A DNA stretch of 64,000 nucleotides. Origin: an uncultured Clostridia bacterium. Its GTDB lineage: Bacteria; Acidobacteriota; Blastocatellia; HR10. The stretch is taken from contig CAZTMT010000001.1 in assembly GCA_964615335.1 (NCBI GenBank), forward strand, positions 642 to 64,641, written 5' to 3'. Under the pieces are notes generated by a model that made no database searches, had not been told where the DNA came from, and saw only the letters and a program-made list of their open reading frames with translations. Both the position numbers and the translations under genes were made by a program. Shown piece by piece: positions 4,545 to 43,201 of this stretch (positions are counted from its first letter, which is position 1; every line of letters begins with the position of its first letter).

Positions 4545-4605
4545 AGTGTTCTGAGATTTGATGCGACGGGCCTCCGGAAAGACAGCGGGTGGGCGCGGCA
4601 CAGGT

Positions 4606-8399: not shown

Positions 8400-8405
8400 G
8401 CGCGC

Positions 8406-11400: not shown

Positions 11401-11582
11401 CCCCGCAAGACATCCCCCTCTTTGAAGCGCCAGGGGGAAAGCGGGAGAACCGTTGCCGCTTCCAGCCTCCGAAAGATCGCGTTCCGATCCGGAGATCGGG
11501 CGAAAAGAGGGGGAAGCGCATTCGTGACCAGAGCGCTGAGAATGAGGCCTGCGAAGAAAACGCCAGGGCTTCTGCTGCTCAT
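8406..11582 (-). CDS. Family GH38 alpha-mannosidase (secreted)
   Basis: GNSHIDLAWLW, WNPDAFGY and HRGTYTSQ motifs are characteristic of GH38 class II alpha-mannosidases. A signal peptide begins at the internal Met (MSSRSPGVFFAGLILSALV). Its start overlaps the PHP gene stop (ATGA). Confidence 0.85.
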   Translation of the reverse strand: MSSRSPGVFFAGLILSALVTNALPPLFARSPDRNAIFRRLEAATVLPLSPWRFKEGDVLRGEAVNVDDSTWASFPVGGEWSTGPAWFRYRVILPQTIGGYDIRGAKLRLRIRIVGENPVHLTVFFNGEKKAEGNDLDPIVLTESAQAGDEFVIAVRANVPGGRTWVRAGQLEVEAPPSRPDPRTFLQECQVIEQLLKTRKEDRAQWERHLDAALAKLDLEALDRGDQISFDRSLREAREALAPLLPLLREFSIRAVGNSHIDLAWLWPWTETVEIVRDTFSTVLQLMQEFPEFTFAHGAAQTYAWMEEKYPKLFERIRERVRQGRWEIVGGVWVESDMNLPHGESLVRQFLHGTRYFKEKFGVDVRVGWNPDAFGYNWQLPQILKKSGMDFFVTQKIFWNEVTRFPYRLFWWEAPDGSRVLTYFPNHYGNPIEPVPMATDLADYAAATGHREYMHLYGVGDHGGGPTRSMLETAARWRAPQALYPRLFFGTVQEFFERASAQLSQLNPPVWRDELYLETHRGTYTSQAETKRNNRQSEILLLNAEKFSSLAHLFGHPYPHGELDVAWKKVLFNQFHDILPGSSIAAVYKDAARDYAEVRRIGREVLEGAVRELADRIQTKGPGLPLIVFNPLSWARTDLVEATLTFPDPVSNVEVRDPRGRRLISEVIARDPQTNRVRIRFIAEDVPPLGYVVFRVIPTARPSPAGSSLVVSGLTMENEFFRVTVDPRSGCLTSLYDKIQHREVLDDSRCGNLLQTFYDKPSVYDAWNIDANFEEKKWELRQAEEVRVLEKGPTRAVIRVVKKFQNSTVIQDLTLYPKIPRIDCRMEVDWREKHILLKVAFPVSVRSPKATFEIPFGSIQRPTTRRTPEEQAKFEVPALFWADLSDGTYGVSLLNDSKYGYDVRDNVLRLTLLRSPAYPDPHADEGIHRFTYSLYPHADDWIQAGTVHRGYELNYPLIPYPTFGHSGSLPPVHSFLRVDPDTVILTALKKAEDSEAWILRFYEFAGKPAEVTISLPKPPRAATEVTLMEKEIAPLTIRGRTVSVPTRPYEIKTVKIEF

Positions 11583-13108
11583 CTTCGTCCTCCCGGTGAA
11601 GAGGTCCTCCGCTCGCGCCTCTCCAAGGGCGCGAAATAGATGGGATTGGTGAGGGCGGTGATCCCTCTTTCGTCGCGCAGGTTGAGTCGGACCCATATGC
11701 CGGGTTCGGCGCTCCAGGGGAGGCGCTGCGAGAAATCCGGCGCGTCCACGCGAAGGCGAATCACCACGCGGCCGCCGGAGATGACCTCGACCATCTGCCC
11801 GGCTCCCCCCTTCACGTCAAGGTGAAGGGTGACGGGCTCGCCCGCGCGAGTGAGGGGGACCTCATCCCCCATCATGTAGCGACGGCCGCGCCCGTCCTCA
11901 GCGAAGAGGAAGAGATCGGGCCCTTCAGGCCCGCGCGTTTTGATGAAGACGCGGCCCGCTTTCAATCCTGCGAGAAGGGCGGGCTCGGAGAGTTCCGTGG
12001 CATAGACGACGGTCGTCGGGACGCCCATGACGTGATCCGGATGCTCGCCGCTGCCCGCGCGATGATCATCGCTGCCTCCGATGCCCGTGATCCGATAGCC
12101 TTCGTTGAGGCGCGCCTCCCAAAAGGGGATTCCGCTCAAAGGACCTTCGACGCGATTCCCGTTGATGATCTCGATCATATCCACCTTGCGGAAGTCGGTC
12201 GTCTCCGTCTCTTCCCATCCGCATCCCATGCATTGCTCGCCGGTCGGATGCGTCGGATGATTGATCGAGATCAGGCCCCCGGCGCGATGGACGTCATCCA
12301 AAATGTCGTTGATCGTTCGCCCCTGCCATCGCAGGCGAAAGTCAATGAAGGCGCTTGTGCCGTAGATGTTCGCGTGCCCCCGATAGGTCGTCAGCTCGCG
12401 CCCGGGCAGAAGCAGAAGCGCGGTGAAGTATTCCTGAAGGCGGCGCATTTCGGCGTGATGGCTCGTCGTGTTGTGATCAGTGAGAGCGAAGAAATCCAGG
12501 CCGCGAGCGGCAGCCGCCTGCACGACGCGAAAGACCGGACAGGGAACCAGCACTCCCTGCTCGTTGCGGCACCGTCCGTCGCTGTGCCCGCTGTGGGCAT
12601 GGAGATCGCCGCGGTACCATCCCGGACCCGCTTTCAGAACTCGAGGCGGACTCACGCCGGGCGTCGAGCACGCGCGCGATCGCGCCGGGACCCATCGGAT
12701 GCGGACCGTGTAGTGCGAGACCTGATCGGGGCGAATGTGCGGCACTCCGAGAAGAAGCCGCCACGTCCCGGCCGGCAGTTCTCCGGGCAGATAGGAAGGC
12801 GTAGCCTCCTCGCACGTCAGAAAGAAGCTCGTCCTCTCACTTCCACTCCAGCCGCGAAAGCGCACCGGATCGAACAGGCCGATATCCAGCGTCGTGCCCT
12901 CACCCCGGTGGGTATAGGTGTATTCGACCTCCAGGCGCTCCAGGGGCTCGGGGACGACGAATTCCCGCACGATATACGTCCCGTGATCGGCGCGCGTGAC
13001 CGTCCCGTGAAAGACGATCTCAGAAGGCTGGGGAGGAAATTGAGAAAAAGAGAGGGGAAAAACGAGGAGCCACCCGAAGGCGAGACACCCTCTCACCGTC
13101 CCAAGCAT
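11579..13108 (-). CDS. Secreted PHP-domain metal-dependent phosphoesterase (CehA/McbA family)
   Basis: WYRGDLHAHSGHSDG and ALTDHN His-rich PHP motifs, with an N-terminal signal peptide. Confidence 0.75.
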   Translation of the reverse strand: MLGTVRGCLAFGWLLVFPLSFSQFPPQPSEIVFHGTVTRADHGTYIVREFVVPEPLERLEVEYTYTHRGEGTTLDIGLFDPVRFRGWSGSERTSFFLTCEEATPSYLPGELPAGTWRLLLGVPHIRPDQVSHYTVRIRWVPARSRACSTPGVSPPRVLKAGPGWYRGDLHAHSGHSDGRCRNEQGVLVPCPVFRVVQAAAARGLDFFALTDHNTTSHHAEMRRLQEYFTALLLLPGRELTTYRGHANIYGTSAFIDFRLRWQGRTINDILDDVHRAGGLISINHPTHPTGEQCMGCGWEETETTDFRKVDMIEIINGNRVEGPLSGIPFWEARLNEGYRITGIGGSDDHRAGSGEHPDHVMGVPTTVVYATELSEPALLAGLKAGRVFIKTRGPEGPDLFLFAEDGRGRRYMMGDEVPLTRAGEPVTLHLDVKGGAGQMVEVISGGRVVIRLRVDAPDFSQRLPWSAEPGIWVRLNLRDERGITALTNPIYFAPLERRERRTSSPGGRR

Positions 13109-13168
13109 AGCTCTTCGCGAAGGCGCAGGGCGCCCGAAGACGCCCTGCGCCCTGTCACGCTTTCAGAT

Positions 13169-16100
13169 TCAGAAGTAGAACTTCAGCGCAAACTGCATGA
13201 CGCGCGGATCTCCGGCGAGGCTCCCGATGCGTCCGAAGGCGCCGCTGGAAGCGTTTCGCTCGGGAAGTCCGAACTGCGGGGTGTTGGTCATGTTGAACAT
13301 CTCCCAGCGGAACTCCAGGCGTCGGCCTTCGCCGAAGTACTCAAATGTGCGCGCGAGCGCGAAGTCGAAGTTCACCAGACCCGGCCCATAGACCGTGTTC
13401 CGTCCGCACGTTCCCAGTCGCGCCGGAGACGGCACGCGGAAGGCCGTCGTATCGAACCAGCGATCCACCGAGCGCTGGTCTTCGGGCAGGGTCGGATCGC
13501 GGAGGCAATCGGCGAGCGCGTTGACCATGCCTCCCCCGCGAGGTCCACCGATGGCCGTATCGTTCGCTCCCGCGCGGATCGTGAAGGGACGGCCCGTCCG
13601 CATCGTGGTGATGCCGCTGATCCGCCATCCTCCCAGAATATGCGCGAGGGCTCCCTCGTTCAAATAGGCGCGCCCGCGCCCGAAAGGCAGCTCGTAGTTG
13701 TAGGCGAGGACGAAGCGGTGGCGGTAATCGAAATCGCTCGGTCCGCGCCGCTCGCGGATGTTATGCGCGTTCTGAAGGAAGCTTCCCGAACCGCCGGTGA
13801 ACAGATGCTCCATGGCATAGTCAATGGACTTGGACCAGGTCCACGCGCCACGGAAGGCCAATCCGTGGCTGAAGCGCTTCTCCACCGTCACTTCCATCCC
13901 GTGGTAGCTCGAGTTCCCCATATTGTCCCGGTACTCGATCGGTCCCAGGTCCGGATAGGGGATGATCCCCGTGGGCGTCCCATCGGGATTGAAGAATTGC
14001 TGGTTGAGGTTGCGCAGGACGGAGAGATGCGTTCCTTTCGTCCCCACGTAATCAATCGTCGCGACGAGGTTGCCCGGCAGCAGCCGCTGGATGCCGAAGT
14101 TCCACTGATCCACCGTCGGAATCACCGCCTCGGGATTCACGGCGCGAAGTCGCACGTTGCGCGGATCCACGGCGCTCGGATCGAGCGAGAGATTGAAACC
14201 TGTGCGCAAGCGCATATTGTTGGCCGTCGTGTTGGGATTGGGAGCCGTCACCACGTTGTTGACGACCCAGGGGAGGTTGAGCCCGAGCTGATCCTCGCTT
14301 CCCGCGCGCTCAAAGAGCATGAAGAATCGGCCGTATCCGGTGCGCAGGACCGTATTCGGCGTCACGCGGTAGGCCAGCCCGATGCGCGGCGCGACATTGT
14401 TTTTGTCCGACTGCACGAGGCTCTTGCCCACCGGAGAAGAGTCGAATCCCGGGAAGGATCGGGCGGTGAACCGCCGTCCCGTCTTCGGATCCAGATTCGT
14501 CAGACGATCCCTCCCTTCGTAGGGCCATGTCGCGAAGTCGTATCGGAATCCGAGATTCATCGTGAGCTTCGGCGTGACCTTCCAATCGTCCTGCCAGAAG
14601 AAGGAGGCCATCCAGAGGCGCGCGTCCACGACATGCGGATTCGTCAGTTGAGCGGACGAGGGATAGCCGAGCAGGAAGTCCGCCATGCCGATGCCTGTGC
14701 GGTTCCCATCAAAGGTCCAGTCCCCGCGCAGCGCCGGCAGGTCCAGATAGATATTGCGCATGGGCAGACGCACATCCACGCCGAAGCGGAGTTGGTGCGG
14801 ACCGATCGTGAGGCTCATCATGTCCCACCACTGGAACTGGTTCGTGAATTGGAACTTGGGCAGGAAAACGGGCGAGCCCAGATGATCCAGCCCTCCCCCC
14901 TGACCGCCCGGAATCGTCTGCGTGCCCCCGCGCGCCTGAATGCGAATGGCCGGCAGGCCGCCACTGTAGAGCGGATCGTCCCGAACGCCCAGGATCCCGA
15001 ACTCGGCGAGCGTGTTCTTCCCAAACGGATCCTGCACCCCATTAGAGGCGTTGCGCCCCCATCCGAGCCGGAACTCATTGAGCGCCCGCGCTCCCAGCGT
15101 GCGATTCCATCCGATCACCGCCGCATGGCCTTTCATGAAGAGCCGACCGAAGGCCGATGTGGACGTCCCGTCAATGATCCCCCCGAACATTCCGGGAACG
15201 AAGCGGAACCGATCCGAGAAGGTGTAGCGCACAAAGAGGTTATTGTTCGCATCGACTTGCCAATCGCCGCGCACGGTGAACTTGTCCGTGTCGTCTATGA
15301 GCGTCGGCGTGCGCAGAAAATTGAAGACGTTTCCGAGAGGTCCCGAGCCGGGGAGATTGGGCAGAGGGACCATGTCGAGGATTCGCTTGGCAACCGGATC
15401 AATGCACTCGGGCGGGATCTTGTTGTCCTTGAAGGAGCCGTCGGGATTGAAGGCCGTGGGAACTTTCGCGCGACAGTCTCCCACGCGATCGAAGATCTTC
15501 GCATATCCGGGTGCGGAGAAGTCGCCGATGCGCTCGTTCGGCAACGGAACGTTCCCCAGGCGCGTCACGCCTCGCCGGATGCGCGTGCCTTCGTAGTCGA
15601 AGAAGAAGAAGGCGTGGTTCCGGACGATCGGCCCTCCCACATTGAAACCGAACTGATTCTGTCGGTTCTTCGCTTTCTTGGCTCCCGCGCGATTCAGGAA
15701 GAAGCTCGTCGCGTCGAAGATGTCGTTGCGCCCGAACCAGTAGGCCGTCCCGTGCAGTTCGTTCGTCCCGCTTTTGGTCGTCACACTGATGGCCGCGCCG
15801 GGACTGCGTCCGTACTCCGCCGAGTAGGGATTCGTGATGATCTTGAACTCCTGGATGGAATCCACCGACGGGCGCACGACCTGAGTGGTCAGCTCTTGCA
15901 CGTTCGTGGAGATGGAGTTGTTATCCACGCCGTCGAGGATGAAGTTGTTCTGCAGCGAGCGCACGCCGTGCACGTTGACTCCGCCTGTGCGTCCGGCGGC
16001 TGTCGCGCCCCCTTCCTCCGTGTAGCGATCCCCCTGAACGCCGGCGATCAGACCCATGAGATCATCCCAGTTGCGCATGCTGAGCGGCAGATCCGTCACC

Positions 16101-16528
16101 ATCCGGTTCTGCACGACAGCGCCGGGAGAGGCTTCTTGAGTCGCCAGCAGGGGGGTCTGAGCCTCGACGAGAACCGTCTCGGCGATCTCTCCGACTTCGA
16201 GCGTGAAATCCAAGCGCGCCCGCTGTCCCACCTCGAGGACGACGTTCTCGCGGACGAATTTCTTGAAGCCCTGGGCTTCTGCCGTGATCGTGTAGGTTCC
16301 AATGGGCAGACTCGCGAAGGTGTAATACCCCGCCTCGTTGGTGACCGCCGAATACTCGACGCCCGTCGCTTTATTCTTCGCCGTGATGGTCGCATTGGCG
16401 ATCACCGCACCGGTCGGGTCTGTGACCAGCCCCGTGAGACTGGCCGTGTGGATTTGCACCGCTCCGCACAGGATCCATCCCGCGCAGAGCATCCACAAAC
16501 AGGCGATCCCAAGCTGCTTGCGCCACAT
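13169..16528 (-). CDS. TonB-dependent outer-membrane receptor with N-terminal carboxypeptidase-regulatory-like domain
   Basis: Signal peptide, then LTGLVTDPTGAVIANATITAKNKATGVEYSAVTNEAGYYTFASLPIGTYTI (CarboxypepD_reg), a plug domain (VLVEAQTPLL...), a long beta-barrel, and a C-terminal ...FALKFYF aromatic terminus. Confidence 0.85.
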   Translation of the reverse strand: MWRKQLGIACLWMLCAGWILCGAVQIHTASLTGLVTDPTGAVIANATITAKNKATGVEYSAVTNEAGYYTFASLPIGTYTITAEAQGFKKFVRENVVLEVGQRARLDFTLEVGEIAETVLVEAQTPLLATQEASPGAVVQNRMVTDLPLSMRNWDDLMGLIAGVQGDRYTEEGGATAAGRTGGVNVHGVRSLQNNFILDGVDNNSISTNVQELTTQVVRPSVDSIQEFKIITNPYSAEYGRSPGAAISVTTKSGTNELHGTAYWFGRNDIFDATSFFLNRAGAKKAKNRQNQFGFNVGGPIVRNHAFFFFDYEGTRIRRGVTRLGNVPLPNERIGDFSAPGYAKIFDRVGDCRAKVPTAFNPDGSFKDNKIPPECIDPVAKRILDMVPLPNLPGSGPLGNVFNFLRTPTLIDDTDKFTVRGDWQVDANNNLFVRYTFSDRFRFVPGMFGGIIDGTSTSAFGRLFMKGHAAVIGWNRTLGARALNEFRLGWGRNASNGVQDPFGKNTLAEFGILGVRDDPLYSGGLPAIRIQARGGTQTIPGGQGGGLDHLGSPVFLPKFQFTNQFQWWDMMSLTIGPHQLRFGVDVRLPMRNIYLDLPALRGDWTFDGNRTGIGMADFLLGYPSSAQLTNPHVVDARLWMASFFWQDDWKVTPKLTMNLGFRYDFATWPYEGRDRLTNLDPKTGRRFTARSFPGFDSSPVGKSLVQSDKNNVAPRIGLAYRVTPNTVLRTGYGRFFMLFERAGSEDQLGLNLPWVVNNVVTAPNPNTTANNMRLRTGFNLSLDPSAVDPRNVRLRAVNPEAVIPTVDQWNFGIQRLLPGNLVATIDYVGTKGTHLSVLRNLNQQFFNPDGTPTGIIPYPDLGPIEYRDNMGNSSYHGMEVTVEKRFSHGLAFRGAWTWSKSIDYAMEHLFTGGSGSFLQNAHNIRERRGPSDFDYRHRFVLAYNYELPFGRGRAYLNEGALAHILGGWRISGITTMRTGRPFTIRAGANDTAIGGPRGGGMVNALADCLRDPTLPEDQRSVDRWFDTTAFRVPSPARLGTCGRNTVYGPGLVNFDFALARTFEYFGEGRRLEFRWEMFNMTNTPQFGLPERNASSGAFGRIGSLAGDPRVMQFALKFYF

Positions 16529-16700: not shown

Positions 16701-18164
16701 CTACAGGCGCGTCCATTCTTCGGGCCAGCGTTCGACGATGACTTTCTTCTCGGTGTAGAACTCGACGGCATCTCGACCCTGTCCGTGCGCGACGCCGAAG
16801 AAGCTCTCCTTCCATCCGCTGAAGGGGAAGAAGGCCATGGGCGCCGCGACGCCGACGTTGATGCCGATGTTGCCAGCGGGCACTTCGTATCGGAACTTGC
16901 GCGCGGCCGCGCCGTTGCGGGTGAAGATCGAAGCCATGTTGCCGTAGCTGTGGCGAGAGAGAATGGCGATGGCCTCATCCAGCGTCGCCGCGCGCATGAG
17001 GCTGAGAACGGGTCCGAAGATCTCCGTCTGCCAGACTTCGCTGCCCAGAGGGACGTCATCCAGAAGCGTCGGCTTGAGGAAGTTGCCGCGCTCGTAGTTG
17101 GGAATTCTCGCGTCGCGTCCATCCAGAAGCAGGGTTGCGCCTTCGCTCACCCCCCGAGCGATGAGGGCTTCGATCCGCGCCTTGCTCTCGCGCGTGATGA
17201 CCGGACCCATCTGGACGTCCTCCTCCAGCCCATAACCGACGCGAAGGGAGCGGGCGACCTCCGCGATGGCTTCGCGAAACGTCGCGTGCGCCTCTCCGAC
17301 AGTCACAGCGACCGAGACGGCCAGGCATCGCTGTCCGGCGCATCCGAACGCGCTCTCACTGATTACCCGCACGGCCATCTCCAGGTCCGCGTCCGGGAGA
17401 ACGACCACGTGATTTTTCGCGCCGCCCTGGCACTGAACGCGCTTCCCCTGGGCTGCTGCGCGCGCGTAGATGTATCGGGCCACAGGTGTCGAGCCGACGA
17501 AGCTCACCGCGCGCACCTCGGGATGGTCCAGGAGGGCGTCCACCGCCGCCTTCGTCCCATGCACGAGATTCACCACGCCCGGCGGCAGTCCCGTCTGTTC
17601 CACCAGCTCCAGCGCGCGCATGATCGAGAGCGGGACCTTCTCCGAGGGCTTCAGGATGAACGTGTTCCCGCACGCGATCGCATACGGGAGAAACCAGAAC
17701 GGCACCATGACCGGAAAGTTGAACGGCGTGATGGCGGCCACAACCCCCAGGGGCTCACGGATCATGTGCTCGTCAATGCCGCGCGCGACGTCTTCGAGAT
17801 TATATCCCTGCATGAGCAGGGGGATGCCGCAGGCGACTTCGATATTCTCGATCGTGCGGCGCAGTTCGCCTCGCGATTCGGCGAGCGTCTTTCCGTTCTC
17901 CATCGTGATCAGGCGGGCCAGCTCGTCTCCGTGCGCTTCAAAGAGGCGCTTGAGGGCAAAGAGGTACTGGGTGCGCTCCTCCGCGGGGGTGCGCCGCCAC
18001 TGGGGAAAAGCTGCCGCCGCGGCTTCCACGGCCCGCGCGACGTCGGCCTCTCCCGAGAGAGGAACTTCGGCGAGCACTTCCCCGGTCGCCGGATTGATGA
18101 CCGGCAGGTATTCGCTCGCCGTCGAAGGAACCCATCGTCCGTTGATGTAGTTCGAGAGTCGCAT
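16701..18164 (-). CDS. iolA: Methylmalonate-semialdehyde dehydrogenase (CoA-acylating), IolA/MmsA
   Basis: ALDH superfamily with the catalytic Cys region (FGCAGQRC) and [16 protein letters not shown] typical of MMSDH. It sits in an iol context. Confidence 0.8.
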
Positions 18165-18182: not shown

Positions 18183-19628
18183 TCACATCTCGCGCCTCTT
18201 CTGCGCGAGAGATTCCACCGGCCCCGAGGGTGCCTTCTCCTCAGGGCCAGAAGTTATCAACTCCAGATCGGGATCCTGCTGCCGGAAGGCCTCGAAGATC
18301 CGACGGGCCACCTCCCACTGCCCGATCAAAGGATGCACCAGAAGCGCCAGTTGCGCGAGCGTCGCTGAACGTTCCACCGCTGCGCGAATCACGAGGCGTT
18401 CATAAGCTTTCACCGAGAGGACGAGGCCCCGCACGGTCTCCGGCAAGCGCCCGACCGCCAGCGGATGAACTCCCTGTGAGGAGATCAGGCAAGGGACTTC
18501 GACGACATCATCCGACTCCAGATCCGCGATCGCTCCGCGATTGAGTGTGTTCACGACAAGACGTCGCGGTTCCGATCCCCAGAGCGCCATGAGCACATCC
18601 CGCGCGACGCGATGATAGCCCGTCGCCGCTTCGAAGGGATCTTCTCCCTCGAAAACCTCACCGCGCACGGCCGAATGCGCGCTTCCCTCGAGCTGGAGAT
18701 ACGAGGCCGAGCGATGGCGAAGATAAGCGCGGTAGAGGGCGAGGGCCTCCTGCAGGCGACCGGCTGCGATCTCCCGCACAAGATCTCGAAAGAGCTTCTC
18801 GTTGAGCTGTTCCAGTTCTTCCCCTCGACTCGCCCCCACGCGCCGCTGGTTCTCCAGCGCGCGAGCATGAGCGTAGTAGAAGAAGACGTACTCGGTGGGG
18901 ATGAGTCCGAGCGCGCGCAGGAGATCGGGATCGAACAGATCGGCCGGATAGAGGCGCCGCAAAAGCTCTTCATCCTGCAACAGCCGCGCCGTCTCATCCC
19001 GACCGCGCACGAGGACGGTGCGCACCCATCCCAGGTGATTGAGTCCGAAGTACTCGCACGCGATGGCCTCGGGAGGCTCCCCGAGCGCTCGCGCGATGCG
19101 GTGGAAGAGTTCGCCCGGAGTGTCACAAATCCCCAGCACGCGCAACTGCGTGTGTGTTGTGAGAGCTTGGGCGATCACGCCGGCCGGATTGGTGAAGTTG
19201 ATGATCCACGCCTGAGGATTCACACGCTCGATCCGGCGCGCGTACTGGAGCACGACGGGAATCGTGCGCAGGGCCATCGCCCATCCGCCCACACCTGTGG
19301 TCTCCTGTCCGACGAGGCCGTGTGCGATGGCCGTTCGTTCGTCGCGAGCGCGCGCGCGAAGGCCTCCGACGCGAATGCTCAAGATGATCGCGTCAGCCCC
19401 GGTCACAGCTTCTTCCACATTCGTCGCCACCGTCACGGCGAAGTCCCCTTTCGCCTGTCGGATCGCTTCGCGCCCCAAGACGGCCATCAGCTCGGCGCGC
19501 TCTTGGTCCAGATCGTACAGGACGACCTCGCTTATGCCCAGCCGCGTCTGCTGCTCGGCGAGTCCATAGAGGAGCAGAGGGGTGCGTACCCCTCCTCCCC
19601 CGATGAGCGCGAGTTTTCGAGACGTCAT
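18183..19628 (-). CDS. Family GH4 NAD+/Mn2+-dependent glycoside hydrolase
   Basis: N-terminal LALIGGGGVRTP Rossmann fold and INFTNPAGVIAQAL...LGICDTP matching the GH4 ICDxP catalytic-Cys motif. Confidence 0.8.
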   Translation of the reverse strand: MTSRKLALIGGGGVRTPLLLYGLAEQQTRLGISEVVLYDLDQERAELMAVLGREAIRQAKGDFAVTVATNVEEAVTGADAIILSIRVGGLRARARDERTAIAHGLVGQETTGVGGWAMALRTIPVVLQYARRIERVNPQAWIINFTNPAGVIAQALTTHTQLRVLGICDTPGELFHRIARALGEPPEAIACEYFGLNHLGWVRTVLVRGRDETARLLQDEELLRRLYPADLFDPDLLRALGLIPTEYVFFYYAHARALENQRRVGASRGEELEQLNEKLFRDLVREIAAGRLQEALALYRAYLRHRSASYLQLEGSAHSAVRGEVFEGEDPFEAATGYHRVARDVLMALWGSEPRRLVVNTLNRGAIADLESDDVVEVPCLISSQGVHPLAVGRLPETVRGLVLSVKAYERLVIRAAVERSATLAQLALLVHPLIGQWEVARRIFEAFRQQDPDLELITSGPEEKAPSGPVESLAQKRREM

Positions 19629-20563
19629 CCGTTCTCGGAGACCTCCTCTCTCTCAGCGCTCTCGATCTCTTCGGGCGTCGGGAAAGCGGCCACTCCGCCC
19701 AGCGCGCGCGTGGAGAGCGCCCCGCAGAGATTGGCGATCTTCAGACATCGCTCCGGGGACTCTCCGTGTAACCACGCGTAGAGAAATCCCGCATTGAAAC
19801 AGTCGCCGGCGCCTGTCGTATCCACGGGGATCGTGCGATAGGGCTTTTCGGCGAACAGCTCACCATGGTGGAGCAGCATCGCTCCGGCTGCCCCGCGCTT
19901 GAGCGCGATGACCGGAACACCTGTTTCGGCGAGCGCGCGCAGAGCGGCTGTGGGGTCGTGCTCCCCCGTCATCTCCGCAGCCTCCTGCTCGTTCGGGAAA
20001 AAGAGATCGAGCGCGCTGAGGGCACGTCGGCTCTCCCGAGCCCGAAGCCACTCGGGATGCCACCCTACATCCAGGGAGAGACTGGTCCCGTGCTCGTGCA
20101 GGAAGCGCCCCAGGGCGATGAGCACGGCCGGATCCGGCGCGCACGCCAGATGCACGTGTCGAGCGGCTGTCAGCTTCTTCCATGTCTCCGGCTCGGCCAG
20201 CAGCGCCGCAAGCGCGCGATTTGCCCCCATGTAGGTGAAGAACGTTCGCTCCCCTTCGTGCGAGATACTCACGGTCACCGCCGTCGGCTCCTCTTCGTGC
20301 CAGATGAGCCAGTGCGTCCCGACACCCCGGCTCTCCAATTTCTGCTTCACCCACGCTCCATCTTCGCGCCCAACCGGAGCCAGTAGACCCACGCGCATCT
20401 TGAGTCGGGCAAGCCCACACGCCGTGATGGCGGCTCCCCCTCCGACATCGCGCGCGAAGCGCGTGGCGAAAGCTTCCTGGCCCGGCTGCGGCCACTCCGG
20501 AAAGCCGCCCAGGACCAGATCAATGAAGAGATCTCCGACAGCGATGACGTCCCAGCTCTTCAT
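19625..20563 (-). CDS. PfkB-family carbohydrate kinase (ribokinase/KDG-kinase-like)
   Basis: C-terminal DTTGAGDCFNAGFLYAW PfkB signature-2. It is ATGA-coupled to the GH4 gene. Confidence 0.8.
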   Translation of the reverse strand: MKSWDVIAVGDLFIDLVLGGFPEWPQPGQEAFATRFARDVGGGAAITACGLARLKMRVGLLAPVGREDGAWVKQKLESRGVGTHWLIWHEEEPTAVTVSISHEGERTFFTYMGANRALAALLAEPETWKKLTAARHVHLACAPDPAVLIALGRFLHEHGTSLSLDVGWHPEWLRARESRRALSALDLFFPNEQEAAEMTGEHDPTAALRALAETGVPVIALKRGAAGAMLLHHGELFAEKPYRTIPVDTTGAGDCFNAGFLYAWLHGESPERCLKIANLCGALSTRALGGVAAFPTPEEIESAEREEVSENG

Positions 20564-20567
20564 CTCC

Positions 20568-21953
20568 TCACCGAGGGAGCGAAACGTCCCCCACCGCCTC
20601 CGGCACGAAAGGCCATTCTCCTTTTCGATAGGCTCTCCAGAAATACGCTCCCATGCCCAGAAGAAGCAATCCGAGACCCGCCAGGACGAAGATCCAGCCG
20701 CTGGAGATGAGAATGTAGATCCATCCCAGCAGGGCGATCACTACGGGCACCGGATAAAGCCACATGCGAAAAGGTCGGGCGATGTCGGGTCGAAAACGCC
20801 GGATCATCACGACGGCCATGACCTGAGCCAAGTACTGGATGATGATCTGAATGACCAGGAGCGCTTTGATGATTTCATCCAAGGCGAACCAGCAAGCGAG
20901 GGCTGAGAGAAGGCCGATCGTCACCAGCGAGAAGGCAGGGAAGCGTTTGGTCGGATGAAGCCGGGCGAAGGGAGCGAAGAACCGTCCCTCGACAGCCGCG
21001 GCATAGGGGACGCGCGAATATCCGAGCAGGATTGCGAAGATCGAACCGAGCGAAGCCCACAGGATCAAAGCCGTGACCGCGTGTCCGGCCCAGGGGCCAT
21101 AAATCCGCTCCATGAAGTCGGAGACGATGGAACTGCTCTGCATGGCCTCGCGCCAGGGGATGACGCCCAGGATCGTGACACTCATGGTGATGTACAGGGC
21201 CGCGACAGCAAGGATCGCCAGGATGATCGAGCGAGGGATCGTCGAGCCCGGGTTCTTCACTTCGCCTCCGAAGAGGCAGACGTTGAAATATCCCCCATAG
21301 CTGTACATGGCGATGAGCGTCGCGGCGCCCAGACCCGTGATGAATTCCCCAGAGATGTGAAACGCTCCGGCCGGGACGTCTGCGACGCGCTCCCATTGGA
21401 AAGACCGGAGCCCGGAGAGCACAACCCATGCGACAGTCGCCATGACGACCGTCCAGAGGGCAACCGAGAGCTTCCCCACCGAGCGAATGTCGCGATAAAG
21501 AAGGGCCGTGACCAGAAGACACAGACCCGCAGCCAGCAGCTTCGTCTCCCAGGGCGTCATCGCCGGCCAGAAGTATTTCGTATAGAGCGCGAAGCCGACC
21601 GCTCCCGACGCGATCGAAAGCGGCGCGATGAAAATCGTCTGCCAGATGTAGAGGAAACTCATCAGCCGGCCCCATCTCTGCGGACCATACGCCTGCTGCA
21701 GATAGAGATACGGTCCTCCCGCTCCGGGCATGGCCGCTCCCAATTCCGCCCAGACCAGTCCATCGCAGAGCGAGATGAGTGCCCCCACGACCCATCCGAT
21801 CAGGGCTTGCGGTCCCCCCATGGCCGCGATCATGATCGGGATCGTGATGAAAGGCCCGATCCCGATCATGTTGAGCATATTGGTCGAGGTCGCCTGCAAC
21901 AGGCCAATCCCTCGGATGAGGCCGGGATGATCGTTGGTCTCTTCGTGTTTCAT
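20568..21953 (-). CDS. APC-superfamily permease (amino acid/polyamine/organocation transporter)
   Basis: 461 aa with ~12 predicted TM segments, resembling the amino-acid/ethanolamine permease family. Confidence 0.7.
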   Translation of the reverse strand: MKHEETNDHPGLIRGIGLLQATSTNMLNMIGIGPFITIPIMIAAMGGPQALIGWVVGALISLCDGLVWAELGAAMPGAGGPYLYLQQAYGPQRWGRLMSFLYIWQTIFIAPLSIASGAVGFALYTKYFWPAMTPWETKLLAAGLCLLVTALLYRDIRSVGKLSVALWTVVMATVAWVVLSGLRSFQWERVADVPAGAFHISGEFITGLGAATLIAMYSYGGYFNVCLFGGEVKNPGSTIPRSIILAILAVAALYITMSVTILGVIPWREAMQSSSIVSDFMERIYGPWAGHAVTALILWASLGSIFAILLGYSRVPYAAAVEGRFFAPFARLHPTKRFPAFSLVTIGLLSALACWFALDEIIKALLVIQIIIQYLAQVMAVVMIRRFRPDIARPFRMWLYPVPVVIALLGWIYILISSGWIFVLAGLGLLLLGMGAYFWRAYRKGEWPFVPEAVGDVSLPR

Positions 21954-21977: not shown

Positions 21978-24668
21978 TCATCTTCGCGCGCGACGCAGGC
22001 TGATCATGTTGGCGAACAGCCGATAAGCTCCGGCCACGCCCGCCGGGAGTTGACGATAGAAGGCATAGGCCGTGTAGATGTAGATCCCGCGCCCGTATCG
22101 AGCCAGCAGCATCCCTCCGCGTTGCGGTTCCTGCCCGCGATCGTGCGACTCCAGCAGGGGGGTGTATCGCTCGTCCCACGTCGTCATGAATTTCGAACCG
22201 CGCTCTTCTACCCATCCCTCGAAGTCCGCCGGCGTGATCCGATTGGGCCAGGTGAAAGCGGGGTGCGTCGGAGCCAGGATCCTCACCGGAGCGTCCTCCT
22301 CGGAGACTTCTTCCGCGCGCGCCCCCAGAGTGTACGGATAGGGGCCAAAAGGCGCTTCGTCGAACTCCTGCGTTTGATACTGCACGATGAGAACTCCGCC
22401 GCGTTCGACATAGTCGAGCAAGCGGCGATTGTAGGCCTTCAGATCCTCCCTGACGGCATACGCGCGAATGCCGATCACAATGACATCGAACGCTTCGAGA
22501 TCGCCCGTGGCTAAATCCGATGGGCCGAGCAGTCGCACGGTGACGCCCAATTGCTCCAGGGCTTTGGGGACTTCGTCTCCAACCCCCATGACGTATCCGA
22601 CCCTCAGCCCCGGAGCTACGGTGACATCCACCCCTCGCAGCTCGATCTCCGCCGGGCGATAGAGATGTCGCGGCTCCAGCTCCCGGTAGGCGATCACCTG
22701 ATACCCTTCGGTGTATTCCTTCCCGTTGTATTGGGCGACAGCCTGCACGCGATAGACCTTGCCGGCCTCCACGCGCGACGGTCTGAGGGAGAAGGCGAAC
22801 GTCTGAATCTCTCCCTCGTGAGTGAAGCGAAACGTCACTTCCGGAGGAGAGACGCTCCATCCCTGAGGCGCGCGGAGCCGGACCGTCCCCTGCGCCGCGC
22901 CCTTCACGTTATTGCGCACGTCCACGCGCACGGGGTAGGGGAGTCGCGTCACCCCCAAGGGGATGATGCCCACCCGAGGAGAGACTGTCACACTGATGGG
23001 AGGAGCGACCATGAGGAGCCGACGCTGCTCTCCCCACGGACGATCCACCCACACCGTCTGCGCCGGTTGCGTCGCCGAGAGGGTGACCCCCTCAAGACGA
23101 TACGTGAAGACGCCCACGACCTCCGGCGGAGACCAGGGCAGGTTCGCATGCTCCGGCTTGTGGATCGTATAAACGGCATCGTGGTATTCCGAAGCCCGTG
23201 ACCAATAGGGGCGCGTGTATTCGGCATCTTCAGGGACGGTCACTTCGAAGCGAACGCGCGCTTGTTCGTTTCGTCCGAGGACGTTCAGTTCCTTGTGAAG
23301 CGCGCGCACGCGCCATCCCGCGGGAGTGCGCAAGGTGATCTCCACGGGTTCCAGACGGATGGGACTTCGGTTGGTCGCTGTCGCTGTGAGCGTGAAGCGC
23401 TGTCCCGGAATGGCGACCGAGAATGTCTCTCGAATTCGGAACCGCTGAGAATCCCCGGGAAGCCCCTCGCCCTCCGGACTCGGATCCACGAGAACGTCCA
23501 GAGCCAGGCCGAGGGCTTTATTCACGGCGTCCTCGAATTCTCGCTCCTTATTGCGGAGCAAAAAGAGAAGATGGTCCTTGGTTGCCTCATCCAGTGAGGC
23601 GCTCTGGACGCGCTCGATCAGAGAACGGGTCAGGCGCAGGCCCGCCGTGAGGTGCGGCGTGATGGTCCATGGATGCCGAGCGTCGAAAGCCGCGAGCGCT
23701 TCGTCCACAAGCCTCTGAATCTCGCTCACCTCCGCGCGGAGATCCAACCCTGGAGCAGCGAGTTTCGCCAGACCGAGCCAGCTCGGGTCGAGGCCCTCAA
23801 AGAGACTGGTCTCCTTTTCAACCTTCGGGAGCACTGTGTCCACGAGTCGGAGCGCGATGCGCGCCGAGCCGCGAGGAGCTCGCGCTTGGCCCGCTCCCTG
23901 CGAGCGCTGGCGGCTCAGGCCCTCGCGGCCGATCTCTCGATAGGAACGCCCGAGCAGAGGATCGTACGTTCCCGTTTCGATCTCCAGCGTGGGCGGTTCC
24001 GCGTCGCGATCGTTGAATCGGAAGGGAGCGACGTAGAGCTTCTTCGCCTGCCAGGGGCGTAATCCTTCGGCGAAATGCTCCGGGAAGCGACGGGGATCAG
24101 CGGCCGCCCGAAACGCTTCCCGCGTGAGGACGCCCGCAGCCTGATGGTTGCCATGCCCATCGCGAGGATCCCCCCGGAATCGCGCGATGATGATGTCAGG
24201 CCGATAGAGGCGAATGACGCGCACGACATCCCGCAAGGCCGTCTCATGTCCCCATTTCTGCAGCGTCTCATCGAGGCGCTTCGAAAATCCGAAGTCCACG
24301 ACGCGCGTGAAGAACTGATCCACGCCGTAGTACCGTCCGGCCGCCAGCAACTCCTCGGTGCGGAGAACACCGAGCGCATCGAAGAGCTCCGGCCCGATCA
24401 GATTCGCCCCTCCTTCGCCGCGCGTGAGCGTGAGCAGTCCCGTGCGGACTCCCTGCCCGCGGCTGAGCCAGGCCAAGAGCGCTTCGTTCTCATCATCCGG
24501 ATGGGCCGTCGTGTGCAGGACGGTGATCGTCGTGCGCAGTCGAAGAAGAGCCTGCCACACAGCGGCTGCATTCTGGTTCTCCACAATTTCCTGGACTTGA
24601 GGGCGGACGGATCCTCCGATCAGTCCGACAAAGAGACAGCTTATGAGTGCTCGCGAGATGTTCTTCAT
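21978..24668 (-). CDS. PIG-L/LmbE-family de-N-acetylase with ~600-aa C-terminal extension (secreted)
   Basis: Signal peptide, then VLHTTAHPDDENEALLAWL (AHPDDE zinc motif of PIG-L/MshB/BshB), followed by a long extra domain of unknown function. Confidence 0.75.
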   Translation of the reverse strand: MKNISRALISCLFVGLIGGSVRPQVQEIVENQNAAAVWQALLRLRTTITVLHTTAHPDDENEALLAWLSRGQGVRTGLLTLTRGEGGANLIGPELFDALGVLRTEELLAAGRYYGVDQFFTRVVDFGFSKRLDETLQKWGHETALRDVVRVIRLYRPDIIIARFRGDPRDGHGNHQAAGVLTREAFRAAADPRRFPEHFAEGLRPWQAKKLYVAPFRFNDRDAEPPTLEIETGTYDPLLGRSYREIGREGLSRQRSQGAGQARAPRGSARIALRLVDTVLPKVEKETSLFEGLDPSWLGLAKLAAPGLDLRAEVSEIQRLVDEALAAFDARHPWTITPHLTAGLRLTRSLIERVQSASLDEATKDHLLFLLRNKEREFEDAVNKALGLALDVLVDPSPEGEGLPGDSQRFRIRETFSVAIPGQRFTLTATATNRSPIRLEPVEITLRTPAGWRVRALHKELNVLGRNEQARVRFEVTVPEDAEYTRPYWSRASEYHDAVYTIHKPEHANLPWSPPEVVGVFTYRLEGVTLSATQPAQTVWVDRPWGEQRRLLMVAPPISVTVSPRVGIIPLGVTRLPYPVRVDVRNNVKGAAQGTVRLRAPQGWSVSPPEVTFRFTHEGEIQTFAFSLRPSRVEAGKVYRVQAVAQYNGKEYTEGYQVIAYRELEPRHLYRPAEIELRGVDVTVAPGLRVGYVMGVGDEVPKALEQLGVTVRLLGPSDLATGDLEAFDVIVIGIRAYAVREDLKAYNRRLLDYVERGGVLIVQYQTQEFDEAPFGPYPYTLGARAEEVSEEDAPVRILAPTHPAFTWPNRITPADFEGWVEERGSKFMTTWDERYTPLLESHDRGQEPQRGGMLLARYGRGIYIYTAYAFYRQLPAGVAGAYRLFANMISLRRARR

Positions 24669-24808
24669 ACCTGTTGGCTCCTTTCATCGCGTAAGGCGAG
24701 CTACCGCCCTTCCCTCCCGCGCGAGGGGAATGACGGCGGTCGTGAGGCCTCAAGGCGCGCCCCACGACCGCACCGGGAGACTCGGCTTTTCTCCGGTCCC
24801 AAGCCGTT

Positions 24809-27800
24809 TCAGAAGTAAAGCTTCAGCCCAAGCTGAATCTCACGAGCCGGACGCTCGGGATTCCGCAGACTCGTCGTGCGTCCGAACGTGCCGCTGGCCA
24901 CGTTCGAATCGGGCGCGGCGAACTGCGGCGTGTTCCACACGTTGAAGAACTCGACGCGGAACTCCAGATAGCGCTCCTCGGTGAAGCGAATCTTCTTGAA
25001 CAATGAGATGTCCCAGTTGTGGAATGCCCAGGAGCTGATCGTGTTCGGACCGCACGTGCCGAAGGTGAAAGGCGCCGGGATGCGGAACGCGTTCTTGTCA
25101 AAATACTGGGCGAGCGTGGGCTTGAAGCCCGCCGGGAAAGGATTCCCCACGCAATCTGCGCGCGAGGTGTGGCCCGGACCCGTATTGCTCCGATCCGGAG
25201 CGTAGATCGTGATGGGAACACCGCTTGTCGAGCTCACGATCCCATTGAGCTGCCAATCGCCCAGGATCTTCGCCCACGCGCCCTCGTTCAGGTAAGGCTG
25301 GCGCGGCCCGAAGGGCAGCTCCCACACCCAGTTGACAACGAGGCGATGACGTTGATCAAACGGCAAGCGCCCGTAATCGGCGCGCATGTCGTAGACGTTC
25401 TGCGGGAGGTTCTGAGGATTCACATTTCCGAACGTTGGGGAGAGATGTTCGCTCACGGTCCCGAGCGCCTTCCCCAATGTGTAGGCGACGTTGAAGGCCA
25501 GTCCGTGCGAGTAGCGCTTGTTCACCGTGATCTGTAACGAGTTATAGTTGGACGTCGCATCGGTGCCGAGCCACTGGATGTAGGCGCAGGAACCGGGGGC
25601 GAGGCAGAAGTCCGGATAGGGGAAGACGACGGGTCCGACGCCGGGCGTGACGATCCGTCCCTGATTGAGGTTGCGCAGCTTTCGGATCTTGCGGTTGTAG
25701 TTGCCGACAAACGAGACGTCCACCGAGAGGTCGTTCGTGATGAGGAACTGCGGCCCGAAGCTGACCTGCTGCGAGTACGGCGAACGCTCATGAAAACTGC
25801 GCGCGCGAATCTGGAGCCGTCGGACATCCACGGTCGCGGGCGCCGGCAGGAATCCATCGCGCAACAGAAGCAGTGGCGGGGCATTGCTCGGAACGCTCAG
25901 ACTCGCGTCAATGACCTGCGGGGGATTCAACTGGAGCATGCTCTCGCTCCCCATGCGATCCATCACCTGGTAGAAGATGCCCACTCCCCCTCTCCAGACG
26001 AGCCGCGACGTCGGAGCATACGCGAAGCCAAGCCGCGGGGCGAAGTTGTTGCGGTCCGGATGCACGAGCGTGCGCGAGAAAAGTCCCTGCCCCTTGGGAG
26101 CCGGTTGAATCGGCGGGAAGGGATTGGGCGCCGCCGTGATCAATCCTCCGCGCCCTCCGTTGGCCGCGGGATCGAAGTTCGTCGTCAGGTCGTTCCGCTC
26201 GATGAAGGGCGTGAAGTATTCGTACCGCACGCCGTAGGTGAGGGTGAGCTTGGGACTGACGCGCCAGCTATCCTGGACGTACCACATGAATCCATCAATG
26301 TAGTTGTGGACAACATGAGGCGTCGTCGTCTGCTGGAAGGAGGCCAAGCCCAGAAGCAGATTCGCGAATCCGTCTCCCGTCCAGAACGTGTTGAAAGCCA
26401 GCTCGCCATGGGGCGCGCGCACGTCCAGGAAGTTGTTCACAAGCCGCTTATACTCGAAGCCGAACTTGTAGGAGTGAGCCCCCCGAATGTAGGAGACGTT
26501 GTCCAGAACCTGATAGACCTGCGAGACCTGAAATTGCGGGCGCCAGCCGGAGGTTCCCAGGAAGCTGTACCCCGCGACGCGAATCCACGGCAGGCCGTAG
26601 ACGAATTCGTTGTTGGGAGCATTCTTCAAACCGAATTCGGCCGCCGCACTCCCTTTGGGCGCCAGCGGTCGGGACCAGCTCTTGATGCGGTTGAATCCGA
26701 AGCGCAGGTCGTTGAGCAGGTTCGGAGAGAACGTGTGATCCCATGTGAGGGCGAGGACCTGACCGCGGACCTCGCTGTTGGCGCTGAAGCCTCCGGTGGC
26801 CAGCGGATTCAGGAAGGGACCGCGCTCGATCATCGCTCGTTCGTCGAAGAAATCGTAGACGCCGAAGATGACGTCCTTCTCCCCGAGACGATGATCGAGG
26901 CGCACGTCGAAGGAATCGTTATCGCTGGGAATGTTGATCGAAGAGACGAACGTGAACGGAGAGATGCCCGGCGCATTGGGCAGCGGATAGAGCGATGCGA
27001 ACTTCACGCCGACGGGATCGGCGCAGGGACGCCCATCGGTGCGCATGGCGTTGAGGTTGAGGCGATTCGGAGGAGAGATGCAGGGAGCGATGACCGACAG
27101 GAAGTCCGGAGGCGCCGTCAGAACCGGACGCTCGCTGAAATCGCCCTGCCGCATCCGAGCCGTCGGGACTGTCCCCGTCAGCGTCGTCTCTCGGCGCGAG
27201 CGCAGCCCCTGGTAGTCGAAGAACCAGAAGGTTCGGTCTTTGAGGAGGGGACCACCGACGGCGAATCCCGCCTGATTGCGAAGGAATTCCCCTTTGGGGA
27301 TCACGCGGGAGCCATCGGGCCGACGCCCGGCCGCGTTGGCGAAGAAATCGGCGGCATCCAGATTATCGTTGCGATGGAACCACCAGGCCGTCCCATGCAG
27401 GTCGTTACTGCCGGAGCGAATCTCGGCATTGATCACAGCGCCCTGAAACCACCCGAACTCCGCATTGTAGGTGCGCGTCTGCACGCGAAATTCGCGCAGC
27501 GCATCCGGAGGCGGTTGCACCACCTGCGGGCTCCGCTCCTGCGCGTTGGTCGAGAACGAGTTGTTGTCCACGCCGTTCAGGGCGAAGTAGTTCTGAAGCG
27601 AGAAGTTCCCATTGACGTTGATCTTGGCCTCGCGCGGATTCCCTCCGCTGGGCGTCGGCAGAGCGCCTGGCGCCAGCAGGATCAAATCCGAATACCGTCG
27701 GCCATCCAGGGGGAGGTCCACGATCCGTCGCTGCTCGACAACGGCCCCCACGTCCGCACTCTGCGTCTGCAGGACGGGAACCGTCTCGGTGACGATCATC

Positions 27801-28179
27801 TCCTCGGTGATCGTTCCCGGTTGCAGAGTCACATCCACGCGCAGACGCTCCTGCACGTGCACGATGACGTTGCTCCGAACAGCCGTCTGAAATCCGGGAG
27901 CCGTCACCCGGACTTCATACGGGCCGGGACGAAGAGCGGGGGTGACGTAGGACCCCGTCGCATCGGTGGTGACCTTCACGCTCGTCCGAAGCTCCAGGTG
28001 CGTGATCGTCACCTCAGCGTTGGGGACCACAGCTCCGGTCGGATCGGTGACCGTTCCCACGATGACCCCCGTGTTGATCTGAGCGCGAAGCCCTGTGCCG
28101 CTGAGGAGAGTCAACAGGATCAGCCACACAGAGCCGGCGAAGATCAAGCGACCACGTGAGGCTCGAACTCTCTCGCACA
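24809..28179 (-). CDS. TonB-dependent outer-membrane receptor (paralog, CarboxypepD_reg N-domain)
   Basis: Same architecture as 13169-16528, ending ...LGLKLYF. I place the start at ATG 28177-28179, preceded by AGGAGG with 5-nt spacing; the track start is an upstream GTG. Confidence 0.85.
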
Positions 28180-28364
28180 TAGTCACCTCCTGTGAAGTGT
28201 TCGCGGGGCCTCACCAGCACCCCGGATGAGTGGGCCTTTTCAGCCATTGGTCAATAAGCGTCGCCAGCCGCTGGACGACAAGCTCCACGAGCCGCTCCCC
28301 CTTCTCCGGCAGAGCCATCAAGGACATCACCACGTCTCGTCTGGTGACGCTCATGACCCCCTCG

Positions 28365-37755: not shown

Positions 37756-37776
37756 GTCTCTTTCCTCCCCTCGCCT

Positions 37777-38622: not shown

Positions 38623-38647
38623 CGCTTTTCCTCCTCTGGACAGATCG

Positions 38648-39688: not shown

Positions 39689-39692
39689 AGCC

Positions 39693-41593: not shown

Positions 41594-41606
41594 CTCTCCT
41601 CTCTCC

Positions 41607-43067: not shown

Positions 43068-43201
43068 CGCAACCCCTCTGCACAACGCGCACCCATTCTC
43101 CGGCATATTGTGCTCCTTGGCACGTGTTCGCTTAGCTATGGACTTTACTCGATTCAGCTCCCTTTGTCCACGGTGCTCCAACAGGCAGGGAATCTTACGC
43201 G

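Follow-up and report, generated by a model that had tools for sequence, protein, structure and literature searches.

The stretch of DNA analysed here, 64,000 nucleotides of contig CAZTMT010000001.1 from a bacterium assigned to the Blastocatellia (Acidobacteriota) and hereafter called the window, carries a block of same-strand genes in which a predicted exported deacetylase of the LmbE/PIG-L family is found among genes of myo-inositol catabolism (iol). The deacetylase gene is a single open reading frame (ORF) at 21978..24668 on the minus strand, with an ATG start and a product of 896 amino acids (aa), and an identical protein, P0001, is present on a 551-kb NCBI contig. Taken as a whole, the ORF and its AlphaFold model describe a multidomain LmbE/PIG-L (CE14-type) deacetylase/amidase that is predicted to be exported. 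The first-pass annotation had called it an 896-aa PIG-L deacetylase with an AHPDDE motif, and the ORF, a match to the Pfam model PF02585 and an intact active site all agree with that call.

In the AlphaFold model, the catalytic alpha/beta domain occupies residues ~34-296 (23781..24569, on the minus strand as are all features of this gene) and has the Rossmann-like alpha/beta fold of solved LmbE members. PF02585 matches residues 53-185 only, scoring 63.9 bits (gathering score 28.2), so that about 600 residues lie beyond the canonical LmbE domain. The LmbE superfamily is defined by an HXDD plus H metal motif, in which a spacer of 97-148 residues separates the second ligand from the third, and by a conserved Arg, Asp and His (PMC4101496). 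In the translation, AHPDDE lies at residues 55-60 (24489..24506), and a profile alignment to MshB, the N-acetylglucosaminyl-inositol (GlcNAc-Ins) deacetylase of Actinobacteria, pairs H56, D58, D59, R103, D125, H172 and H175 with H13, D15, D16, R68, D95, H144 and H147, respectively. By this alignment and the published motif (PMC4101496), H56 and D59 are assigned as metal ligands and D58 as the general base, and in H172-G-N-H175 (24144..24155) H175 is assigned as the third metal ligand and H172 as the substrate-binding His. D59 and H175 are 116 positions apart, inside the published spacer range, and the substrate-binding Arg68, Asp95 and His144 of MshB are matched by R103, D125 and H172. Among 91 family representatives (35-84% identity), the sample used for all conservation values below, H56, D58, D59 and R103 are 100% conserved, followed by H175 (98%), D125 (93%) and H172 (88%). 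The profile of the N-terminal domain matched MshB with an E-value of 1e-12 and the archaeal deacetylase Dac with 3.5e-6; by profile and fold, MshB and the mycothiol S-conjugate amidase Mca rank among the nearest characterised relatives, and LnmX, a protein of unknown function, scored slightly above both. These data indicate that the protein, judged by its sequence, is a member of the LmbE/PIG-L family with intact catalytic and GlcNAc-binding residues, and metal-dependent hydrolysis of an N-acyl-glucosamine amide is predicted for it.

The N-terminus reads MKNISRALISCLFVGLIGGSVRP|QVQE, a basic n-region followed by a hydrophobic stretch. The signal-peptide-like segment spans residues 1 to ~20-23 (24600..24668), with the charged n-region and a hydrophobic helix at 2-15 in the model, and its cleavage site is a predicted one. 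Alignment A1 and the full-length model begin at K2, the true residue number being the model number plus one, and true numbers are used here. The same N-terminal layout was found in 64 of 64 aligned homologues with a complete N-terminus, mostly ending in A-Q|V-Q-E; in the protein itself, the site of cleavage (GGS|V or P|Q) is atypical. A lipobox-like string, L-I-S-C11, also occurs, and its Cys recurs in homologues. A lipoprotein was nevertheless rejected, and a type I signal peptide preferred, because a Cys at about position 11 leaves the hydrophobic region before it too short and because most homologues end in A-Q|VQE. The signal peptide that had been read from the single sequence is thus conserved as a pattern, by which export of the deacetylase is well supported, and the enzyme would presumably reside in the periplasm.

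An AlphaFold2 model of the whole protein, built on 64 homologues, reached a predicted local distance difference test score of 81.6 and a predicted template-modelling score of 0.82, the latter suggesting a compact assembly of domains. In this model, a helical-bundle linker domain (residues ~298-386; 23511..23777) follows the catalytic domain and leads to three immunoglobulin (Ig)-like beta-sandwiches. Sandwich 1 (residues ~389-481; 23226..23504), all-beta in the model, is a NEW3/NPCBM_assoc module that scores 40.9 bits against PF10633 when taken alone. Sandwich 2 (residues ~488-571; 22956..23207), with strands at 517-569 in the model, gave no match in the Pfam scan, and sandwich 3 (residues ~578-681; 22626..22937) is a weak NEW3 domain with 19.5 bits alone, below the cut-off. 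Across the whole protein PF10633 matches two stretches with 55.5 bits (gathering score 24.4), and an LRxPxGW motif is common to sandwiches 1 and 3. The chain ends in a GATase1-like domain of ThuA-like fold (residues ~689-896; 21981..22604), assigned by structure comparison. The extension had been described as ~600 uncharacterised residues that might hold a second hydrolase. Some 600 extra residues are indeed present, but they belong to known fold classes, of which NEW3 was already found by Pfam, and no hydrolase of a recognisable kind is among them, only the helical bundle, the three sandwiches and a Cys-less GATase1-like domain.

Residues 689-896 adopt the GATase1 flavodoxin-like fold, which was recognised by structure comparison alone. 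A PDB profile search with the C-terminal 215 residues returned chance matches only (E>=0.06), and no significant Pfam match was obtained for the domain, including DUF4159, PF06283 (ThuA; no match at E<=5) and PF08532 (Glyco_hydro_42M; E 0.12 and 12.3 bits, the cut-off being 25.8). A profile search with the domain returned solely fragments of the same deacetylase family and was not informative on distant relatives. No conserved Cys was found anywhere in residues 689-896 of the 91 representatives, the sequence after the central strand being LIVQYQTQEF, and a search of the extension for a GATase triad found H802 as the sole moderately conserved His (60%). A glutaminase (class I amidotransferase) was therefore rejected, the Cys-His-Glu triad and the nucleophile-elbow Cys both being absent. 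This domain is the most conserved of the protein, with a mean identity to the target of 0.55 and 44 columns conserved at 90% or more, compared to 0.50 and 35 columns in the catalytic domain and to 0.21-0.31 and 0-2 columns each in the helical bundle and the sandwiches. Its near-invariant polar residues are Y764, E791, W819, R823 and D843, and WVEERGSK (22191-22214) is a family-invariant motif. In the full-length model, low-confidence loops at ~765-850 hold this motif and the equally invariant EEVSEE, and the domain gave a confident fold when modelled alone. A structural check had been suggested of whether the extension is merely a common non-catalytic module. NEW3 and GATase1-like domains are indeed common accessories of carbohydrate-active enzymes, but a conservation exceeding that of the catalytic domain suggests that the GATase1-like domain is a constrained functional partner and no loose appendage.

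A word-indexed search returned 7961 matches, the best 120 of which are all 841-940 aa long and 59-84% identical to the deacetylase. Among 50%-identity representatives, 7823 matched at E<=1e-3 and 2480 at E<=1e-30; the best 150 are mostly 800-970 aa, and shorter entries resemble fragments. The full architecture was found in no fewer than 2480 clusters at 50% identity and in 586 or more species genomes; it is not rare and defines a family of thousands of proteins. Its hosts are Acidobacteriota (Blastocatellia, Terriglobia, Bryobacterales), Poribacteria and Verrucomicrobiia, and the closest relatives (82-84% identity) come from hot-spring and Blastocatellia metagenome-assembled genomes (MAGs). 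Members are named just "PIG-L family deacetylase", "LmbE family" or "NEW3 domain-containing" in the databases, and there is no solved structure of any of them.

The deacetylase gene is tightly packed with its neighbours. Upstream lies OMP1 (24809..28186, minus strand), an outer-membrane barrel of the TonB-dependent type with CarboxypepD_reg and OMP_b-brl_4 domains in Pfam (783 bits for OMP_b-brl_4, a weak match to the TonB_dep_Rec barrel and no Plug match at E<=1e-3). A GC-rich hairpin with a T-run just after the barrel gene (~24773-24800) may attenuate transcription into the deacetylase gene. Downstream on the same strand follow an APC-superfamily permease (20568..21953; Pfam AA_permease_2), a PfkB-family sugar kinase that is the second PfkB of the cluster and not iolC (19625..20563; Pfam), a glycoside hydrolase family 4 (GH4) glycosidase of the NAD+/Mn2+ type (18183..19628) and the methylmalonate-semialdehyde dehydrogenase gene iolA/mmsA (16701..18164; TIGR01722). 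The deacetylase and APC genes are separated by 24 bp, APC and PfkB by 4 bp and GH4 and iolA by 18 bp, and PfkB and GH4 overlap by 4 bp. The best NCBIfam matches of the permease include the fructoselysine transporter FrlA, below the cut-off; the kinase reached no NCBIfam equivalog, and its nearest PDB entries are ribokinases. The GH4 enzyme, with the motif GICDTP, was assigned by Pfam and PDB comparison to the phospho-glycosidase clade: its nearest PDB entries are 6-phospho-beta- and 6-phospho-alpha-glucosidases (E 1e-64 to 1e-44; 1s6y and 1up6 closest), compared to 1e-19 for the non-phospho AglA. Its CDTP resembles the CDMP of 6wbt, unlike the CNVP of the 6-phospho-beta enzymes 1s6y and 1up6. 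We take CDMP to be a mark of 6-phospho-alpha-glucosidases, which would fit an alpha-linked glucosaminide.

On the other side of the barrel gene, a LacI-family regulator (by Pfam) and iolB, iolC and iolD (by NCBIfam) occupy 28365..33230 on the minus strand. The NCBIfam scores exceed the cut-offs for iolB (TIGR04378, 345 against 205), iolC (TIGR04382, 399 against 300), iolD (TIGR04377, 965 against 715) and iolA/mmsA (584 against 448). A 47-aa ORF between iolD and the barrel gene (28187-28364) is called in an identical public contig (L001, 6315-6458). Between the LacI gene and a TPR gene lie divergent near-consensus sigma-70-type promoters, at 33311-33284 on the minus strand (11/12) and at 33326-33353 on the plus strand (12/12), and a LacI-operator-like palindrome, CAAACGGTTTG, is located just upstream of the LacI start (window 33231-33420). 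No palindrome common to the regions upstream of LacI, OMP1, the deacetylase and the second barrel gene, OMP2, was found, CAAACGGTTTG occurring upstream of LacI alone, and nothing follows from this absence as to whether the cluster genes are regulated separately. Terminator-like sites in the scan were no commoner than in shuffles.

To see how far this arrangement is kept, 82 non-redundant genome loci were screened by tblastn with the window proteins, and counts were taken from the 47 best-matching loci that have 8 kb or more on each side. The adjacent TonB-type barrel was found in 17 of the 47 loci, the APC permease in 18, the GH4 glycosidase in 16, the PfkB kinase in 15 and iolB/C/D in 10. The permease/kinase/GH4 module is present in 17 loci, 11 of which also carry iol genes, and the module and its iol link occur on both deep branches of the neighbour-joining family tree. 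The position of the gene between a TonB-type barrel and a permease/kinase/GH4 block, first described for the window and borne out by Pfam matches of the neighbours, thus recurs in distant loci. The association with iol genes likewise recurs in distant Acidobacteriota and in one Verrucomicrobiia genome, in five gene orders. The window has LacI-iolB-iolC-iolD-OMP-PIGL-APC-PfkB-GH4-iolA (PIGL, the deacetylase; OMP, the barrel), L056 has iolBCD-PIGL-OMP-APC-PfkB, and L072 (Bryobacterales) has OMP-PIGL-APC-PfkB-GH4-LacI-iolB-transaldolase-iolD-iolE-like. In Terriglobia, PfkB-GH4-iolE-like-iolG-like-iolB(-iolD) with OMP is divergent from PIGL, and APC and LacI lie farther out; in L088, PIGL is part of an iolB-iolC-Cgl0159-iolD operon, in which it lies directly ahead of iolA and follows a Gfo/Idh/MocA gene at a distance of 10 bp. 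These independent rearrangements, which keep the association, argue for a functional link of the deacetylase with inositol catabolism. In a Blastocatellia MAG (L002, 18874-20175), an extra M20/M28 peptidase gene lies between the kinase and GH4 genes; removal of an N-acyl-amino-acid moiety, as in mycothiol, would fit this peptidase.

Beyond iolA, the window continues on the minus strand with the second TonB-type barrel, OMP2 (13169-16528), which directly follows iolA and has a marginal Plug match of 24.3 bits. Next come a CehA/McbA-family PHP metallohydrolase (11579-13108; 275 bits against NF038032), a GH38 alpha-mannosidase of the same block (8406-11696) and a 453-aa ORF (7038-8399) without a Pfam or NCBIfam match. 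A 50%-identical homologue of this ORF adjoins GH4 in L053; unannotated neighbours in L088 and L085, compared with it directly, are unrelated. The block from OMP2 to the 453-aa ORF (7038-16528) could be a second module, for mannosyl-inositol conjugates. Farther on are a Zn-dependent dehydrogenase (6019-7041) whose best NCBIfam match is IolM (scyllo-inosose 3-dehydrogenase), below the cut-off at 213 against 450, an ORF with coiled-coil matches only that may not be a real gene (4606-5997), and a sugar-type ABC ATPase and permease (2014-4682), all on the minus strand. At 35247-43181 (minus strand), an unrelated phosphate-uptake block comprises a PAS histidine kinase, a response regulator, PhoU, the PstB ATPase, two Pst permeases, a phosphate-binding protein and a phosphate-selective porin O/P.

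Based on the domain assignments and the gene context, we propose, with a probability of about 0.5, that the protein is an exported LmbE/PIG-L amidohydrolase that performs the de-N-acylating step in scavenging an N-acetyl- (or N-acyl-) glucosaminyl glycoside, the aglycone being most likely myo-inositol. Location, substrate, order of steps and role of the C-terminal domain are what we infer here, and periplasmic de-N-acetylation of a GlcNAc-inositol conjugate is our leading hypothesis. Candidate substrates would be GlcNAc-alpha-inositol, a mycothiol-type N-acetylcysteinyl-glucosaminyl-inositol (AcCys-GlcN-Ins; GlcN, glucosamine), or the GlcN(Ac)-inositol head group of a glycolipid. GlcNAc- or N-acyl-GlcN-inositol is the most economical substrate class, since MshB and Mca, among the closest characterised relatives, act on it. 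The conjugate would cross the outer membrane through the adjacent TonB-type barrel, and the deacetylase, with H56, D59 and H175 as the metal site and D58 as the general base, would hydrolyse the 2-N-acyl amide to leave a free amine. The APC permease may then take in the now-cationic GlcN-glycoside, the PfkB kinase may phosphorylate it and the phospho-type GH4 glycosidase would cleave it, releasing inositol for degradation by the Iol enzymes. Deacetylation would be needed before cleavage because such GH4 enzymes do not act on a 2-acetamido glycone; ChbF, a GH4 enzyme, is inactive on GlcNAc6P-GlcNAc (6P, 6-phosphate) until ChbG removes the acetyl group (PMC13197890). In the protein itself, the helical bundle and the three Ig-like sandwiches would serve as a scaffold, and the GATase1-like domain would be an integral partner of the catalytic domain, maybe as a lid or aglycone-binding surface or as an obligate oligomerisation interface.

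Several observations weigh against this proposal. The NCBIfam equivalog cut-offs are missed by far for MshB (31.4 against 224), Mca (43.2 against 277) and BshB1 (36.7 against 182.5), and by these sequence scores the deacetylase is not an orthologue of any of the three. The oxyanion-stabilising Tyr142 of MshB is replaced by D170 and its Asp146 by N174 (family consensus D and H), and MshB specificity is therefore not transferable to the deacetylase. The APC permease and the PfkB kinase have no informative equivalog, so that their substrates are guesses, and to read the GH4 motif as a sign of alpha and not beta specificity is tentative. The gene had been placed inside an iol cluster, which holds for iolB, iolC, iolD and iolA, but iolG, iolE and iolJ were not found among the scanned ORFs of the 64-kb window (no Gfo/Idh/MocA, AP_endonuc_2 or aldolase). 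The relatives L072, L075 and L088 do carry IolE-like, IolG-like or Cgl0159-type genes, the IolE- and IolG-like ones with sub-cut-off scores. Moreover, the module is missing from about half of the family loci, including many in Blastocatellia and all 15 fully flanked Poribacteria. Finally, no family member is characterised biochemically, so that the function of the deacetylase is a predicted one, and our literature searches found no paper on the family, on CE14 in Acidobacteria, or on GlcNAc-Ins/GlcN-Ins or mycothiol catabolism.

In Poribacteria, the deacetylase gene is flanked by xylose-isomerase-like TIM-barrel and Gfo/Idh/MocA genes (L026, 5331-6809 and 9097-13812), a synteny kept in ~25 closely related genomes. 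The two neighbours were considered as IolE and IolG and not accepted as such, their similarity being weak and sub-cut-off, and the synteny is not independent evidence because the genomes are too closely related. A DUF4159 protein, which we presume to represent another GATase1-like family, is encoded nearby.

The main alternative is that the enzyme is a chitobiose or chito-oligosaccharide deacetylase like archaeal Dac or ChbG, acting in the periplasm before import, phosphorylation and GH4 cleavage of GlcN-GlcNAc, with the iol genes nearby through co-regulation or chance. Such a route accounts for the link to GH4, but we consider it unlikely, for the domain profile favours MshB (E 1e-12) over Dac (E 3.5e-6), the GH4 motif is CDTP and not the CNVP of 6-phospho-beta enzymes, and neither the window nor the annotated loci showed any GH18, GH20 or nag genes. 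In addition, iol genes beside the deacetylase in five arrangements are hard to attribute to chance. The TonB-type barrels raise the question of cargo size, since they usually import something larger than a disaccharide, and this would suit the processing of inositol-glycolipid head groups, for example glycosylinositol phosphoceramides with GlcNAc or GlcN, glycosylphosphatidylinositol-type GlcN-inositol or relatives of phosphatidylinositol mannosides, with participation of OMP2, CehA/McbA and GH38. The genes for OMP2, the PHP-type CehA/McbA hydrolase and the GH38 alpha-mannosidase directly follow iolA in the window, and NEW3 and Ig-like modules are typical of glycan-acting enzymes. This function appears quite unlikely to us all the same: those three genes accompany the deacetylase in its closest relatives, L005-L007, only and not in the distant module loci, the family is not accompanied by any conserved enzyme specific for lipids or phosphodiesters, and the existence and abundance of such substrates are presumed.

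A wider amidase function was also weighed, in which the protein would release other N-acylated amines in the periplasm (N-acetylated aminocyclitols or inosamines, or N-acetyl amino-sugar acids) and the amine itself would be the nutrient. The substrates of LmbE enzymes also include N-acyl-GlcN conjugates and 2'-N-acetylparomamine (PMC4101496), APC permeases carry amines and amino acids, and L002 has its M20/M28 peptidase inside the module, but the conserved GlcNAc-binding R103, D125 and H172 and the constant presence of GH4, which implies a glycosidic bond to cut, make this improbable. The least probable reading of all is a deacetylase that modifies exopolysaccharide or cell wall for biofilm or envelope, like Agd3 or PelA, and does not serve catabolism. 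Those two enzymes have different catalytic folds, the gene is packed tightly with permease, kinase, phospho-glycosidase and iol genes in a module conserved across classes, and no glycosyltransferase or export genes lie nearby.

The proposed scavenging of a glucosaminyl-inositol conjugate resembles several known systems in part. MshB and Mca of Actinobacteria are single-domain cytosolic proteins of ~290 aa with biosynthetic and detoxifying roles. Different from these, the deacetylase described here is predicted to be exported, has 896 aa and five extra domains, is encoded in a catabolic operon, falls below their equivalog cut-offs and lacks Tyr142; to our knowledge, its hosts are not among the producers of mycothiol. 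The ChbG-ChbF pair of E. coli and Salmonella follows the same logic, deacetylation and then a phospho-type GH4, and in the window GH4 is the third gene downstream of the deacetylase within one same-strand block. ChbG is a cytoplasmic YdjC-family enzyme that acts after uptake by a phosphotransferase system (PTS). In contrast, the present cluster has a predicted exported LmbE-type deacetylase, a TonB-type barrel with an APC permease for uptake, a PfkB kinase and a GH4 with CDTP instead of CNVP, and no PTS or YdjC genes of a Chb-type pathway were found. Archaeal Dac (3we7, 3wl4, 8bgn) is a hexameric cytosolic enzyme of ~270 aa with 15-20% identity to the deacetylase, around which no chitin-pathway genes were found. 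For the GATase1-like domain, the comparators are ThuA-like proteins (1t0b, 3rht, 2gk3), the GH42 trimerisation domain, Agd3 and PelA, and it differs from a typical accessory module in being the most conserved domain of its protein, with near-invariant polar residues of its own. Like SusC/D-type loci of Bacteroidota, the cluster also combines a TonB-type barrel and a LacI-type regulator with an exported carbohydrate-active enzyme, a transporter in the inner membrane and a cytoplasmic glycosidase; unlike in those loci, there is no SusD partner, the barrel is of the acidobacterial CarboxypepD_reg/OMP_b-brl_4 type and the predicted substrate is a small conjugate.

More tentatively, it is possible that the deacetylase family provides the entry enzyme of an undescribed pathway by which Acidobacteriota and some Verrucomicrobiia harvest glucosaminyl-inositol conjugates that other organisms release; these might be lipid head groups with GlcN-inositol, or mycothiol or GlcNAc-Ins of actinobacterial origin. 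The GH4 enzyme would then be a 6-phospho-alpha-glucosaminidase yielding glucosamine 6-phosphate and myo-inositol, and the GATase1-like domain the inositol-recognition half of a two-domain active site, which would be a new functional use of the GATase1-like fold.

All characterised LmbE/PIG-L enzymes listed by a 2014 review are biosynthetic, detoxifying or chitin-catabolic and have a single PIG-L domain (PMC4101496). New here are an exported multidomain LmbE variant, as predicted from sequence, a Cys-less GATase1-like domain in it that is strongly conserved for reasons yet to be explained, and a predicted, so far undescribed route for scavenging glucosaminyl-inositol conjugates. The same chemistry would thus operate in a predicted exported multidomain protein, within a very large family of highly abundant soil and sponge-associated bacteria. 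Should the substrate be ordinary chitobiose, the finding would shrink to a multidomain variant of a known step. If the proposed route is true, it would extend the ChbG/ChbF principle, in which GH4 needs a de-N-acetylated glycone, to a new system, and it would provide a function for thousands of "PIG-L family deacetylase" genes and a role for the adjacent acidobacterial TonB-type barrel. It would also show the recycling of inositol-linked aminosugars, which Actinobacteria make as major metabolites and which also form part of eukaryotic membranes.

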